Source: Eledone cirrhosa
Lineage: Eukaryota
NCBI GenBank assembly: GCA_964016885.1
Contig: OZ024759.1
Span: 35,402,001-35,466,000, forward strand
Direction: 5' to 3'
DNA: 64,000 bases
In this document: positions 40,126 to 62,215 of the stretch, one piece after another
Layout: each line of letters starts with the position of its first letter
Position numbering within the stretch: the first letter of the stretch is position 1
The notes under the pieces: model-generated
What the model was told of the DNA's origin: nothing
Seen by the model: the letters and a program-made list of their open reading frames with translations, nothing else
Databases searched by the model: none
Translations under genes and position numbers: made by a program

Positions 40126-40157
40126 TATAAAAGAAGCTTCCATTATGAGAATCAATT
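40126..40157 (+). promoter_or_regulatory. TATA box and initiator-like element of secreted Cys-rich gene A
   Basis: TATAAAAG at 40126-40133, TCAATT about 28 nt downstream, ATG at 40246. Confidence 0.65.
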
Positions 40158-40245
40158 GCAAAGTTCTTGCAAAGATTACATAACAGAACCTCCTTCAGGC
40201 TTCCAGAATCTTCTACAAAGCTTCTATATCCTTCTCCAAGAAATC

Positions 40246-40321
40246 ATGATGGTTAAGAATCAGGCAATCTTATTTCTAGTGGCAATCTTGCAGCTCCTGT
40301 CTGTCGTCAAATGTCAAAATT
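40246..40321 (+). CDS. Gene A exon 1, signal peptide
   Basis: Encodes [25 protein letters not shown] plus one base (t), donor GTAAGA at 40322. Confidence 0.82.
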
Positions 40322-43300
40322 GTAAGAAATATTTTACATTTTTTTTGCGTCATTTTTTTTTTTTTTTTTACATTATTTAATCATTTATTGGTTTCAGACA
40401 TTAGACTGTGGCCATACTGGGGCAGTGCTGCACCATGCTGGAGCAGTATTGTGGCCATACTGGGGCAGTGCTGCACCATGCTGGAGCAGTACAGGGGCCA
40501 TACTGGAACAGTGCAGTACCATCCTGAAGCAGTACAGGGCCCATACTGGGGCAGTGCAGTACCATGCTGGGGCAGTACAGGGCCCATACTGGAGCAGTGC
40601 TGCACCATGCTGGAGCAGTACAGGGCCATGCTGGAGCAGTACAGGGCCATGCTGGGGCAGTACAGGGCCCAATGCTGGGGCATTGTTGGGGCTATACAGG
40701 GGTACTGCTGAGCCCATGCTGGCTCACCATCTTAAAGGGATTTAGTTGACTTTATTGACCTGAATACTTACTTTTTCAATTCTGGTACTTATTTTATCAA
40801 TCTCAGTTTGTTGAACCGCTAGGTCAAGGACTTAGCTACGGCCTAGGTATTTAGCTCTTTAGGCTAACTCTACAATATATGACCCCCCTCTCCCAGTTAC
40901 ACCCCCTGCTTTCAGTTATGACCCCTTCAGATAGATAGATGGATAGATAGGTAGATAGGTAGGTAGATAGATAGATAGATATTTCTTTATTTGCCACAAG
41001 GGCGCACAAGAAAAGGGGACAATACAAGGACATATGCCGGGGATTTTACATACAGTTGTGTTAAAATATTTTTAAAACAAACAAATTTAACAATCGAAAT
41101 CCCCAATAGGGGGGGGGGGCATTACAAATGGGTTGTTTTATACCCCGTAGATAGAACAACCCTCAACTTCAGGAGCGTGTCGTGCAAGTTCTCCTTTCTT
41201 CCTTTTGTTCTCTTCTTCAACCTACAGGTTTATATACAGAGAAGGCCCAATCACTCGGGTCATTTTTGCCACATTCACCCACCTTTCAGTAAATTTACTG
41301 GGGTGCAGTACCTCTCTCTCCACTCTGATTCTCCTTCTAAAGTGGTACCTAAAGAAGGGAATGAGTTGTTGTCCGGAGAGAAAGGCATCTGTCTTCAGTC
41401 CTCTCAATCTCGTCCACCATATAACCTCTTTCACCATAGCAACTATACAGAGCAAAACTGCCTCTCTTTCTACACACAAGATAAGAAGTTGACCAATGGT
41501 GAAACTTAACAAAGTTAGCTCCATATATATATAGAAGACAGCAGATATATTTAGCTAATATTAAATATAGTTACCATATTCCATTGTTAAACCAAAATAT
41601 GAGGAAGATATTTTAGCAATTGGTAATCTTGTAGGAGTTGGATTACTAATTCATCAGACATAACATTGACTATTTTGTGACCAAATCTCTCTCTATATAT
41701 ATATATATACACACACACACATATATATACATATATGTGTGTGTGTATGCGTGTATATGTGCATATATATACACACATATATATATATCATCATCATCGT
41801 TTAATGTCTATCTTCCGCACTAGCTTATATATACATATATATATACATATATATATATATACATATATATACATATATATATATGTATATATACATATAT
41901 ATATATATATGTAGAGGTTATATTTAATTTGTTGAGATTCAATAAGCTTAAACATTTTTATAACTGATATAAAGCACTCAACAGATTAGTGGAGTAAATA
42001 CACAATATATTAATAAATGGAAACTATATTTATAAAACCATATTTATTTTATTATACATATTTCAAGGGCCACCAAGGCAAATTATGGTGCGCTTTCATC
42101 AGATAAAATACAGATTTGTTTTATATAAATAAATTTTTTCCGGGTATGTCAATATTTATATATAAAACAAATCTGTATTTTATCTGATGAAAGCGCACCA
42201 TAATTTGCCTTGGTTGCCCTTGAAATATATATAATAAAATAAATATGGTTTTATAAATATAGTTTCCATTTATTAATATATTGTATATTTATATATATAT
42301 ATAAATATATATATATATATATATATAAATATATATATATATATAAAAAAATATATATATATATAAATATATATATATATAAAAAAATATATATATATAT
42401 AAATATATATATAAATATATATATATATATATATATATATATATATATATATATAAATATATATATATATAGATATATATAAATATATATATATATATAT
42501 ATATATAAATATATAAATATATATAAATATATATATATAAATATATAAATATATATAAATATATATATATATAAATATATAGTGCCAATCTAATTATATA
42601 TATATATAAATATATAAATATATATATAAATATATATATATATATATATATATATATATAAATATAAATATATATATATATATATATATATATATAAATA
42701 TATATATATATATATATAAATATATATATATATATAAATATATATATATATATATAAATATATATATATATATATGTATGTATATATATATATATATATA
42801 TATGTATGTATATATATATATATATATATATATATATATATATATATATATATATGTCGAGACTCTGCATCCTTTAAGGCCTCCATGCTTCCCGAGATTC
42901 GCCAACACAACACCTAATGTTCCCCCTCCATATACATACACACATGTATTTCATGACTCATACACTGTTCACTTCACTGACATTTGTACATTACTCTATG
43001 TACTATACATGCACCTTTGACGAGTTGTAGTGCACCTGAGCACTGTACACAATAATTTCATTATTATTAGTGTGTGTGTGTGTGTGTGTGTGTGTGTGTG
43101 TGTGTGTGTGTGTGTGTGTGTGTGTGTGTGTGTGTGTGTGTGTGTGTGTGTGTGTGTGTGCGTGTGTGTGTGTGTGTGTGTATATATATATATATATATA
43201 TACATATGTATGTATGTATGTATAGTTGTGTGTGTATATATATATATTGAAAGATATACAGATCGAACCTTGAGCTGATCAGTGGTGAAACACGTGTCAC

Positions 43301-59900: not shown

Positions 59901-62085
59901 ACAAGTTATCAGGTCTACAGCACTGTGAGGGGTTAATGTCATGTTAGGACAAGTTATCAGGTCTACAGCACTGTGAGGGGTTAATGTCATGTTAGGACAA
60001 GTTATCAGGTCTACAGCACTGTGAGGGGTTAATGTCATGTTAGGACAAGTTATCTGGTCTACAACACTGTGAGGGGTTAATGTCATGTTAGGACAAGTTA
60101 TCTGGTCTACAACACTGAGGGGTTAATGTCATGTTAAGACAAGTTATCAGGTCTACAACACTGTGAGGTGTTAATGTCATGTTAGGACAAGTTATCAGGT
60201 CTACAACACTGTGAGGGGTTAATGTCATGTTAGGACAAGTTATCAGGTCTACAGCACTGTGAGGGGTTAATGTCAATAATGTTACAATGGAACAGACCCC
60301 TTACCTATGATGGGTTTGATGCAATAAAATGTTCCTTTAGTGTAGCAAAGAGAGAAATTACCACATGGTAAGATGCTGGAACAATCAAACTTACTTGACA
60401 GGCATTCCTCACCTGAGAGAAAGGTAAAAACAGAAGATTAATAACAACAACAACAATAAAAATGATGATGATGACAACGATGAATAAAGAAATAAAGTAT
60501 TTAAATAACATTATAGTGTATATATGTGTGTGTGAGTGGATGTATACATGTGCACATATATATATATATATGTCGAGCTGCGAATTATTGAGTCGGGTCA
60601 GATCGATACAGATCGAACCTTGAGCTGATCAGTGGCGAAACACGTGTCACCTACCAATAAATCATCCTTGTTATCCTTTCAATATATTACACTCCGTATA
60701 GCTCTACACCTCATCACAGAAGTGAACTTAAACATCGAGTGCTCTCCCGGGTGAACCTGGAGTAACTCCAAGTTACACTAGAGAGAGAGAGAGAGAGGAT
60801 AATACCAGTTTTAAATTACTAACACCATTATCCAGCAAAGTACTCAATACTTGTGATAGTAGAGTGTAAATATAGTGGAGAGTTAGGGCCCAACAGCTGA
60901 GCTCTTGCCAATTCAACATATATATATGTCATTCAAAAGAAATCATTAGGAAGGCTTTCCTGATATATATATATATATATATATATATATATATATATAT
61001 ATATATACATATCTATATATCTATACATATATATATATCATCATTCATCATCATCATTTCATTTTACGTCCACTTTTCCCTGCTTGCAAGGGTGGGACGG
61101 GAACTGATTCTGGCTTGATTTCTACGGCTGGATGCCCTTCCTAACACCAACCTCATTTACAGTGAGTGCTGGGTGCTATTTTGCCGTGGCACCTCCACGA
61201 CCACTTTGTAGTGGAATGATAGGGACCCAAGTCCCTATCATCTCATTTCTACAGCTGAGTAAACTGGAGCAATGTGAAATAAAGTGTCTTGCTCAAGGAA
61301 ACAACACATATATATATATGAGACACTGTAAAGTGGACGTGTAAAAGGCAAAAGACACAGCAAAAAGCACCCAGCACACACTGTCAATGAGATTGGTGTC
61401 AGGAATGGCATCCAGCCATAGAAAACCAGCCAGAAACACCCCTATATGAGTGAGACATGGTCACCTGACCTAACTTGCCTCTAAATGGGACAAACCCGTC
61501 TAACCCATGCTAGCGTGGAAGACAGACGTTAACCGATGATGACGATATATATGTGAGATCCGGGTTCAATCGGAGGTAACCACAGTTATATATATATATA
61601 TATATATATTACAAAGAAGGTGTGGTAAGATACCAGGTGGACCATAATGCATCACAGTACTCAATACTTAGGGTAGTAGTGTGGGTAATAGGAATCTAGC
61701 TGTTGAAACGGCCAGAGCTCAGCCATCAGGGTCCTCACTTTTTTCCCATACATATATGTGCCAAGAAATGCCAGTGGAAGGAAGACACAGTAGAGGAAGA
61801 CCACGAAAAACATGGGCGGAGGTGGTGAGAGCAGACCTCAGATTGCTGAAGCTCATGCAGGAGATGACGAAGGACCATGACAAGTGGAGAGATGCTGTGC
61901 TGAATAGGACCCGTCCCAGCCTTGCAAGCAGGGAAAGTGGGCATAAAATGATGATGATGATGATGATATGTGTATGTGTGTATGTAAAATTAAAAAAATG
62001 GTATCTTACATTCTGCCTGACTTTGGACACAAAGGGCAAAGATCAAAGTCAGCAACAACGAAAGAAATATTTTCCTTCCAAACAT
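56994..62085 (-). CDS. Secreted cysteine-rich protein B (paralogue of A), spliced: complement(join(56994..56995,58791..58907,60305..60412,62010..62085)), 100 aa
   Basis: Translates as MFGRKIFLSLLLTLIFALCVQSQAE-CEECLSSKFDCSSILPCGNFSLCYTKGTFYCIKPII-DVCAVPDVKTACLPRCNSGWIALYHTPCKGGVCCVELPS. Introns are GT-AG and phase 1. The last exon, which completes the stop T|AA, is less certain. Confidence 0.85.
57820..57980 (+). mobile_element. SINE of a second family
   Basis: Core gtcaactttgc(c/t)tttcatcctt..gggtcgataaaataagtaccagt recurs near 18311, 35371 and 53938, and inverted at 14965-15060. Confidence 0.65.
58791..58907 (-). CDS. Gene B exon 3, beta-defensin-like module
   Basis: ttctttctctgcag acceptor and GTGAGT donor. 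Cys spacing C-x8-C-x3-C-x11-C-x4-CC. Confidence 0.87.
59028..60275. repeat. 48-bp minisatellite (about 26 copies) in gene B intron 2
   Basis: Unit gttaggacaagttatcaggtctacaacactgtgaggggttaatgtcat. Confidence 0.95.
60305..60412 (-). CDS. Gene B exon 2, 6-Cys module
   Basis: ctttctctcag acceptor and GTAAGG donor. Aligns with gene A exon 2 (CxxCLxSxxDC...LCYxxGxFxCIxP). Confidence 0.88.
   Translation of the reverse strand: MRNACQVSLIVPASYHVVISLFATLKEHFIASNPS
61765..61967 (+). mobile_element. RTE-type LINE 3' end with (ATG)n tail
   Basis: Encodes VEGRHSRGRPRKTWAEVVRADL..EMTKDHDKWR. An inverted partial copy lies at 53177-53333. Confidence 0.7.
62010..62085 (-). CDS. Gene B exon 1, signal peptide
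   Basis: 76 nt, as in gene A exon 1. Hydrophobic core with a VQS/QA cleavage region, donor GTAAGA. Confidence 0.85.
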
Positions 62086-62207
62086 AATTCACCAATTCTT
62101 TTCTTTGTCTTAGAATAACAATATTTCAACAACTCTTGTCTGTGTGTCTTCCAACTGAAATATTCTTCGGTTTTCTTACATCTAATCAACTAAATACAGC
62201 CGAGAGC

Positions 62208-62215
62208 CTTTTATA
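62208..62215 (-). promoter_or_regulatory. TATA box of gene B
   Basis: TATAAAAG on the minus strand, 130 nt upstream of the ATG (120 nt in gene A). Confidence 0.65.

Follow-up and report, generated by a model that had tools for sequence, protein, structure and literature searches.

What is encoded by two neighbouring, convergent genes of Eledone cirrhosa that do not appear in a list of open reading frames? The genes, here called A and B, lie in a 64-kb stretch of contig OZ024759.1 (positions 35,402,001 to 35,466,000; the window) of a 3.0-Gb genome assembly of 1796 contigs. A first-pass annotation of this stretch had noted that they are hidden from the open reading frame track; this is true, but it reflects only splicing. 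Our analysis of the sequences confirms that A and B are real spliced genes, and that they are two members of a small uncharacterised family common to Octopus and cuttlefish. The proteins combine a predicted signal peptide, one or several copies of a six-cysteine module (M), in some members a Thr-rich linker, and one module (D) with a different arrangement of six cysteines. The interpretation that we favour, with a probability of roughly 0.45, is that this coleoid family of secreted, exon-duplicated proteins with a predicted defensin fold serves in the defence of epithelial or mucus surfaces, where it would bind microbial surfaces or enzymes instead of causing cationic lysis.

Two spliced genes with a common architecture

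The two gene models hold at the level of the splice sites: all five proposed introns have GT-AG borders, all are in phase 1, and the frames stay open across them. For gene A on the forward strand, three introns give a protein of 200 residues and a stop codon, and for gene B on the reverse strand, two introns give 100 residues up to a further GTGAGT donor. The proposed orders, signal peptide-M-M-linker-D for A and signal peptide-M-D for B, are retained, but each gene likely has one more terminal exon, as discussed below. The features of the two genes are:

40126..40132, forward strand: TATA-like box of gene A (TATAAAA), 120 nt 5' of the ATG; putative role
40246..40321, forward strand: coding portion of exon 1 of gene A, which encodes a predicted signal peptide with a hydrophobic core of 3.0 on the Kyte-Doolittle scale (KD); donor GTAAGA, phase 1
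43619..43735, forward strand: gene A exon 2, module M1, Cys spacing 2-6-6-7-7; the M of gene B is its nearest relative, with non-Cys identities of 34-41% to the M modules of B and of the O. bimaculoides protein P0008
45995..46258, forward strand: gene A exon 3, module M2 (2-6-6-8-7) and then the Thr/Pro linker
46906..47047, forward strand: gene A exon 4, module D (15-4-12-5-0); GTAAGA donor in phase 2, or read-through to the TAA at 47049-47051
62209..62215, reverse strand: TATA-like box of gene B (TATAAAA), 130 nt 5' of the ATG; putative role
62010..62085, reverse strand: coding portion of exon 1 of gene B, which encodes a predicted signal peptide
60305..60412, reverse strand: gene B exon 2, module M (2-6-5-5-7); E 1e-9 with the O. 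bimaculoides protein P0008
58791..58907, reverse strand: gene B exon 3, module D (8-3-11-4-0); ends at the phase-1 GTGAGT donor

The two TATAAAA positions (40126 and 62215) are the end coordinates that the first-pass annotation had set for the locus. The linker of gene A comprises 48 residues, of which 25 are Thr and 13 are Pro; the mature protein of gene B, with 78 residues, has no linker.

The M modules follow the overall spacing C-2-C-6-C-(5-6)-C-(5-8)-C-7-C, and the first Cys codon of every M is split by an intron. A pattern of acceptor and Cys spacing finds five exons in 464 kb, exactly the five that were known, and none in 5 out of 5 block shuffles. This test is partly circular since the pattern was written from those same exons; support that does not depend on it comes from the full-length proteins of Octopus and cuttlefish. 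Contigs from three runs of one sample behave as DNA and are silent on expression; in them, the exons are low-copy islands among repeats. No further M or D exons were detected within 200 kb on either side of the window, and searches of the genome with single proteins gave no further copies of the family, with few candidates scored and distant paralogues therefore possible. Neither a word search nor an Atlas search with the D exon of gene A gave a match. Weak D matches elsewhere in the genome were rejected as Cys-coding satellite or unrelated frames; a 49-bp satellite family (window 39361-39623; also in L046 and L047) translates to Cys-rich repeats and is the source of such false matches.

The two genes had been regarded as homologous exon by exon. 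When the scores are judged against 2000 shuffles with the cysteines held fixed, this is strongly borne out for M, weakly for D, and not for the signal peptides. The comparison of A-M1 with B-M scores 82 as compared to 29.2 +/- 6.8 after shuffling, and none of the 2000 shuffles reaches this value. The scores of A-M2 with B-M and of A-M1 with A-M2 are reached by 15 and 28 shuffles, respectively, that of the two D modules by 26, and that of the signal peptides, which show no likeness, by 665. Thus, the paralogy of A and B rests on M, the common architecture and the intron phase more than on the sequence of D. The cysteine pattern of D had been called beta-defensin-like, and indeed the D modules of A, B, Octopus and cuttlefish all have six cysteines ending in an adjacent CC, whereas M lacks a terminal CC.

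A family common to Octopus and cuttlefish

A profile of the three M exons was compared with 1.84 billion proteins and gave three matches at E<=0.001. One of them, P0001, a JGI/IMG protein of 1694 residues, was dropped since it aligned via short Asp/Cys repeats and is unrelated. The second, P0003, is the uncharacterised Octopus sinensis protein LOC115223160 (XP_029649447.1), whose cluster includes the likewise uncharacterised O. vulgaris CAI9739106/7 and O. bimaculoides LOC106872590 (XP_014775150.1); the O. vulgaris and O. bimaculoides orthologues are referred to as P0007 and P0008, respectively. The third, P0002, is Sepia pharaonis CAE1274490.1, labelled uncharacterised or hypothetical. This gene model has neither a signal peptide nor two of the M modules and looks mispredicted. 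The 90% cluster of P0002 contains P0004, an unnamed but complete Logan protein of 289 residues with a signal peptide, four M modules, a Thr-rich linker and D. The search gave full-length relatives, none of them in a characterised family, and the idea of a two-gene oddity has to be abandoned: RefSeq/UniRef already contains orthologues from a cuttlefish and from three species of Octopus under the label 'uncharacterized'.

The relationship is clearest for gene B, which is 62% identical to the uncharacterised Octopus proteins of 103 residues. The alignment is free of gaps over 75 residues from the first Cys, all 12 mature cysteines are in register, and the signal peptide-M-D order and the Cys positions of gene B are those of the LOC115223160/LOC106872590 family over the full length. 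In the D exon, the identity to the Octopus D region is 70%. Gene A shares the M-linker-D layout and the 15-residue first gap of D with the cuttlefish proteins. Its second M module has 31-34% non-Cys identity to the cuttlefish modules M1-M3 (0 of 2000 shuffles for M3), and its exon 3 is the sole match of the cuttlefish protein P0004 in the genome (E 0.008). By comparison, A-M1 resembles the B type of M, with non-Cys identities of 34% to B and 24-41% to Octopus. The protein profile and word searches gave no Octopus protein with the layout of gene A; the Octopus counterpart may be unannotated or lost.

The copy number of M in the family is 1, 2 or 4. The cuttlefish modules M1-M3 are 50-59% alike, as would be expected of later internal duplications. 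Across nine M modules, the six cysteines and one Pro are invariant, and a hydrophobic-aromatic hairpin and the closing C-[VI]-E are conserved. In cuttlefish genomic read-through proteins (P0005, P0009 and P0010), too, the sequence changes at these module boundaries, in agreement with the same phase-1 exons. Word searches with alignments retained 1 of 39 and 3 of 2337 candidates, all of them cuttlefish-like fragments that the family had included before; those searches gave no member from squid, nautilus or outside the cephalopods.

The first-pass annotation had not recognised this domain combination, and we likewise found no described family for it, with no relevant match in Pfam, PDB sequences or the literature. 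Literature searches that included six identifiers found no published description; cephalopod venom-gland surveys and preprint supplements outside their reach could list the family. The identifiers are absent from the searched portions of the supplement text of PMC10138644, PMC7693380, PMC12607849, PMC10142993 and PMC9712504.

Two further observations concern individual members. For O. vulgaris, two forms are predicted, P0006 and P0007, and the 113-residue form leaves the D exon before the last three cysteines and would have no intact D. The C-terminal tail of the cuttlefish protein carries an extra unpaired Cys (31 cysteines in P0004), which could allow dimers.

The 3' ends of the genes

In both genes, the end of the D exon is probably not the end of the coding region. 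The features that bear on this question are:

47261..50137, strand not applicable: 70-bp tandem array of 41 copies (about 2.9 kb), which fills the presumed last intron of gene A
50289..50400, forward strand: likely terminal exon of gene A, with one added residue, TAG at 50293-50295, and AATAAA at 50369 and 50386
59028..60275, strand not applicable: 48-bp tandem array of 26 copies within intron 2 of gene B
56830..56995, reverse strand: candidate terminal exon of gene B, with an acceptor followed by AA, which would complete TAA, and AATAAA-type signals 141 and 150 nt further on

For gene A, a GTAAGA donor overlaps the apparent stop codon at 47049-47051, and its context is identical to that of the exon 1 donor. 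Between 47051 and 50236, 3' of the D exon, there is neither AATAAA nor ATTAAA. The acceptor at 50289 has 18 pyrimidines in 20 positions and a CTAAC branch-like site, it is one of three acceptors of this strength on the forward strand of the window, and the terminal-exon stretch has a single match in the genome. The donor over the apparent stop, the lack of a poly(A) signal until 50237 and the strong acceptor together suggest that gene A is likely spliced from 47047/47048 to 50289, giving five exons and 201 residues. Intron 3 of gene A contains a 12-bp minisatellite (46304-46605) that forms an open Val/Pro/Asp/Gln repeat of about 95 codons; stop codons part it from exon 3, and it shows several letter changes and indels as compared to contigs from the same sample.

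For gene B, a fourth exon that completes the stop codon is likely. Four lines of evidence converge on this: (i) a phase-1 donor follows residue 100; (ii) the Octopus orthologues end at the residue that matches residue 100 of gene B; (iii) read-through past the GTGAGT donor would give 113 residues with an unpaired 13th Cys; and (iv) just past D, the sequence of the cuttlefish genomic read-through proteins changes at a Gly-Lys, as would suit a donor in phase 1. Moreover, the variant P0006 of O. vulgaris departs early from the D exon, with Glu as its next residue; this would be compatible with a following exon that begins with AA or AG, the letters that would complete the stop codon in the main form. 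The position of this exon is tentative: the start at 56995, in low-copy DNA between repeats, is one of 19 relaxed candidates, and no match to the tail of the O. vulgaris variant that would place the exon was found.

Protein properties and sequence variability

The proteins are likely secreted. A hydrophobic N-terminal core (KD 2.7-3.2) is present in all four full-length proteins that were scored, and a conserved Gln follows a small residue. The mature chain likely starts at Gln24 in A, with Gln in the same place in all homologues, and at Gln23 in B; a start with Gln is predicted for each of the five mature chains examined, which suggests a pyroglutamate cap. There are 18 mature cysteines in A, 12 in B and Octopus, and 31 in cuttlefish, and full pairing would give six disulfides in B and nine in A. 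With one to four N-glycosylation sequons per protein and the Thr/Pro linker, both N- and O-glycosylation may be expected. The net charge is +6 for A and -1, -4, -5 and -2 for the other four mature proteins. Since four of the five mature proteins are thus near-neutral or acidic, cationic membrane lysis is disfavoured for B and its orthologues, and so is an antimicrobial action of the classical cationic type.

The linker, the sequons, the neutral or acidic charge and the variable repeat number would also suit structural or reproductive matrix glycoproteins of mucus, gut cuticle, egg coat or spermatophore, in which the modules would cross-link or bind polysaccharide. The unpaired extra Cys in the cuttlefish tail fits such a role, and cuttlefish egg-case proteins are indeed Cys-rich glycoproteins (PMC4500399). 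However, those proteins, the SepECPs, have 71-74 kDa, are strongly cationic and carry another Cys motif (PMC4500399). Moreover, the mature protein B is small and lacks the linker, and no chitin-binding or mucin domain scores above threshold, the sialomucin-type Pfam matches (E>=0.5) covering the Thr run only. We therefore consider a matrix function unlikely.

Among the three Octopus orthologues, 8 of the 13 variable sites fall in M, which has 30 non-Cys sites, and five in the other 61 (Fisher p=0.026; p=0.098 for M against D alone). The four differences that separate O. sinensis from O. vulgaris all lie in M, and B departs from Octopus at 13-14 of the 30 non-Cys sites of M and at 10-11 of the 33 of D. 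These counts hint at relaxed or diversifying selection on M. The proposal that the proteins are fast-evolving effectors is thus modestly supported, in that M is the most variable portion among the Octopus orthologues, but B has still kept 62% identity, and no further genome copies were found.

A variable M in a secreted-type, Cys-rich, Gln-capped modular protein would be compatible with components of the salivary or venom gland, that is, peptides rich in disulfides whose targets would be channels, receptors or haemolymph enzymes of the prey, or which would protect other venom proteins. Precedents are the beta-defensin-like peptides in the venom and mucus of sea anemones (PMC6835510) and the tandem defensin repeats of Gila monster helofensin (PMC9138766). 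On the other hand, the accessions are absent from the searched supplement text, including that of an O. vulgaris salivary proteome and of a Paroctopus gland study, which cover partial text and are weak negatives, and the word 'defensin' is absent from the main text of a 2026 preprint on cephalopod venoms (bioRxiv 10.64898/2026.04.09.716377). The finding of only two loci and the mucin-like linker, which is generally untypical of neurotoxins, also speak against this function, and we regard it as improbable. If the proteins should nevertheless be salivary, they would constitute a new venom family.

Predicted folds of the modules

The favoured interpretation, binding at surfaces, includes a predicted defensin fold. 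In the Atlas, the nearest cluster of P0003 is from arthropods (0.87, 172 shared features), and 17% of its members carry PF00711 and 12% PF10468; ranks 4 and 5 are vertebrate beta-defensins (0.81 and 0.76). The AlphaFold2 model of P0003 has a mean predicted local distance difference test score (pLDDT) of 69.7, with three strands in D at pLDDT 72-80. Foldseek with this model returned nothing at E<=0.001 and 37 weak rows. The row of highest probability was helianthamide (probability 0.18, E 5.9, target template modelling score 0.62, root-mean-square deviation (rmsd) 2.9 over 42 columns); human beta-defensin 2 was also among the weak rows, with the matched query range not reported.

In the model of the cuttlefish protein P0004 (mean pLDDT 57.5), a short helix forms at CxxC in every M, together with short strands and a hairpin. 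With the M repeat of this model, VIA found 8 of 48,161 chains at Z>=2, and four of these eight are beta-defensins that align with M2 (at about residues 68-113): CpoBD13 from crocodile (Z 2.6, rmsd 3.1, 37 aligned), AvBD11[1-40] (Z 2.5, rmsd 3.5, 39), mallard AvBD3 (Z 2.5, rmsd 2.3, 36) and human beta-defensin 2 (Z 2.3, rmsd 3.3, 39). These scores are low and tie with viral and kinase matches. VIA with the P0003 model was swamped by the signal helix, and Foldseek with the P0004 model, re-examined by VIA, gave nothing useful. For D, a beta-defensin fold is weakly predicted, and it might also apply to M. The VIA matches, together with the AvBD11-like spacing of the last five cysteines of M, raise the idea that M is a defensin fold with one Cys moved, in which the last Cys would have disappeared and another would have arisen in the N-terminal helix; we regard this as a rather unlikely hypothesis.

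The occurrence of helianthamide and PF10468 among these leads bears on a further explanation, namely that the proteins have enzyme inhibition as their dedicated function, in the manner of the tick carboxypeptidase inhibitor (TCI, I68) or helianthamide. The disulfide core would then offer a digestive or microbial hydrolase either a loop or a short C-terminal tail. Two Cys-rich domains with 12 cysteines are present in B and its orthologues, and six disulfides in TCI (PMC9966942). Past the last Cys, the tail has five residues in B and Octopus and 4-5 in A, and 2-5 in such inhibitors (PMC9966942). But there is no profile match to PF10468, and the tail is not conserved, with 17 residues in cuttlefish. 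In the I68 inhibitors, the tail has an aliphatic P1 and usually an aromatic P2 residue (PMC9966942), whereas the tails of B and Octopus have no aromatic residue and the penultimate residue of B is Pro. Finally, M lacks the CC of the TCI-type domain, and A and cuttlefish have 18 and 31 cysteines. Inhibition as the dedicated function is therefore quite unlikely.

A possible role in surface defence

How could the family act as a binder at epithelial and mucus surfaces? It is built from single-module phase-1 exons, i. e. a predicted signal peptide, one to four M, an optional Thr/Pro linker and one D, and may have grown by duplication of the symmetric 1-1 M exon. Each M would hold a hairpin on a fixed core of Cys, Pro and aromatic residues with a variable face toward the ligand, and repeated M units would add avidity, set by the copy number. 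A glycosylated linker would space the modules or tether the protein in mucus, and D would serve as the more conserved effector or anchoring unit.

Several observations weigh against this interpretation. The Atlas placements, all under 0.9, are leads only, and none of the fold matches reaches significance (Foldseek E>=1; VIA Z<=2.6, with the repeat modelled at pLDDT 55-70). In the cuttlefish model, D has a pLDDT below 50 and is unresolved. No Pfam defensin family matched the seven exons and six homologues up to E 10, in a search whose HMMER filters drop weak matches, and a PDB sequence search gave no relevant match. M and D show no similarity at the profile level (hhalign probability 0.4%), and the similarity between the D modules and those of cuttlefish does not exceed that of Cys-fixed shuffles (reached by 191 and 246 of 2000). 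Since every coding intron between modules is in phase 1, the agreement in phase with defensin genes discriminates little. Only two loci were found, unlike the expanded array that is typical of defence peptides. Finally, even a defensin fold would leave the function unfixed since it also serves toxins and enzyme inhibitors.

The identification of this family is of interest because few host-defence peptides have been described in cephalopods, and a family conserved from octopods to cuttlefish is a concrete candidate whose modules of 35-45 residues can easily be synthesised. A 2020 paper reported that neither homology search nor immune challenge revealed a conventional cephalopod antimicrobial peptide (PMC7551771). 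New is the undescribed six-Cys module M, present in 1, 2 or 4 copies beside a defensin-like module. If M were a re-wired defensin, it would illustrate how a new disulfide pattern arises within the defensin fold and how multivalent effectors are built through exon duplication.

Genomic surroundings

The window is rich in micro- and minisatellites. Upstream of gene A lies what we take from its motifs to be a synaptotagmin-like gene (window 11022-27730, forward strand). Its C2 domain lies at 23307-23564 (Pfam E 2.5e-11), other exons are near 12762, 14476, 24440, 26330 and 27540, and an intron contains a 4.8-kb minisatellite of 37/77-bp units (18444-23285). Since the gene stops about 12 kb short of gene A, neither A nor B is nested in it. 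Fragments of a reverse transcriptase of the LINE (long interspersed nuclear element) type occur between genes A and B (50955-51713, forward strand) and in the flanks (L031 and L041). About 40 kb before the window (L029:3230-5821, forward strand), an uninterrupted frame of 864 residues matches VPS9 weakly at its C-terminal end (E 4e-5, which is below the curated cut-off). C2H2 zinc-finger exons in the neighbourhood and, upstream, A20-type zinc-finger exons were found at L033:8611-9999 (reverse strand), L028:88-390, L044:8925-9998 and L043:2-661 (all forward strand). At 13-50 kb past the end of the window, on the forward strand (L006-L009 region), there are several clean candidate exons of another gene downstream of gene B.

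Comparison with known systems

The family resembles beta- and big defensins in the six cysteines of D ending in CC, the predicted three-stranded sheet and the predicted signal peptide; it differs from them in that it is mostly non-cationic and has no Pfam match. The beta-defensin spacing C-x4-6-C-x3-4-C-x7-12-C-x5-7-CC (PMC6805989) is not found in B (8-3-11-4), A (15-4-12-5) or cuttlefish (15-3-14-4), the first gap being too long in all. The spacing of big defensins, C-x4-14-C-x3-C-x13-14-C-x4-7-CC (PMC6805989), is narrowly missed: by two residues in the third gap of B, by one in the first gap of cuttlefish, and by one in each of three gaps of A. Big defensins have a hydrophobic, Cys-free N-terminal domain, the place of which is taken here by six-Cys M modules with no PF14862 match; in the genome, PF14862 gave 0 matches among six candidates, which does not show its absence. 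A phase-1 intron before the Cys-rich exon has been described for big and beta-defensin genes (PMC7203481), and the D exons likewise follow a phase-1 intron. The N-terminal Gln recalls the pyroglutamate of oyster Cg-BigDef1 (PMC6805989). Big defensins range from anionic to cationic with no electrostatic mechanism shown (PMC7203481), and they can act by trapping (PMC7203481 and PMC6805989). Unannotated big defensins have been reported for Octopus (PMC7203481), but genes A and B are not those.

TCI is built of two beta-defensin-like domains. Peptides of the helianthamide type are beta-defensin-like enzyme inhibitors of mucus (PMC6835510). Like these proteins and magnificamide, the members of the family are small, probably secreted and Cys-rich; unlike them, they give no profile match, their tail varies, and the Cys pattern of the first module is different.

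Architectural parallels are the avian double defensin AvBD11 and Gila monster helofensin with its four repeats, which as in this family carry several defensin-size Cys modules per chain. AvBD11 has its modules on their own exons and 12 cysteines, as does gene B, and the last five cysteines of M (6-6-7/8-7) are spaced much like the first five in the C-terminal domain of AvBD11 (6-6-7-6-CC; PMC9138766). Differences are the N-terminal CxxC and the missing terminal CC of M, and the Thr/Pro linker in A and cuttlefish. The family thus shows the polydefensin trait of at least two modules, each on its own exon, and the likeness may be convergent since no sequence similarity was detected. In its most far-reaching form, this comparison would make M a beta-defensin fold with the terminal CC reduced to C and a Cys of the CxxC helix taking over the third disulfide, so that M would have the pairs C2-C6, C3-C5 and C1-C4 and D the beta-defensin pairs C1-C5, C2-C4 and C3-C6, and the family a cephalopod polydefensin derived from a duplicated phase-1 exon, with 1-4 variable recognition units on a mucin-like stalk that bind microbes at surfaces with tunable valency; we think it improbable that all of this is correct. 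Since the spacings are missed, the N-terminal domain that big defensins carry is absent and there is no profile match, we do not class the family as beta- or big defensins. By analogy, it may rather work like a multi-domain trans-defensin.

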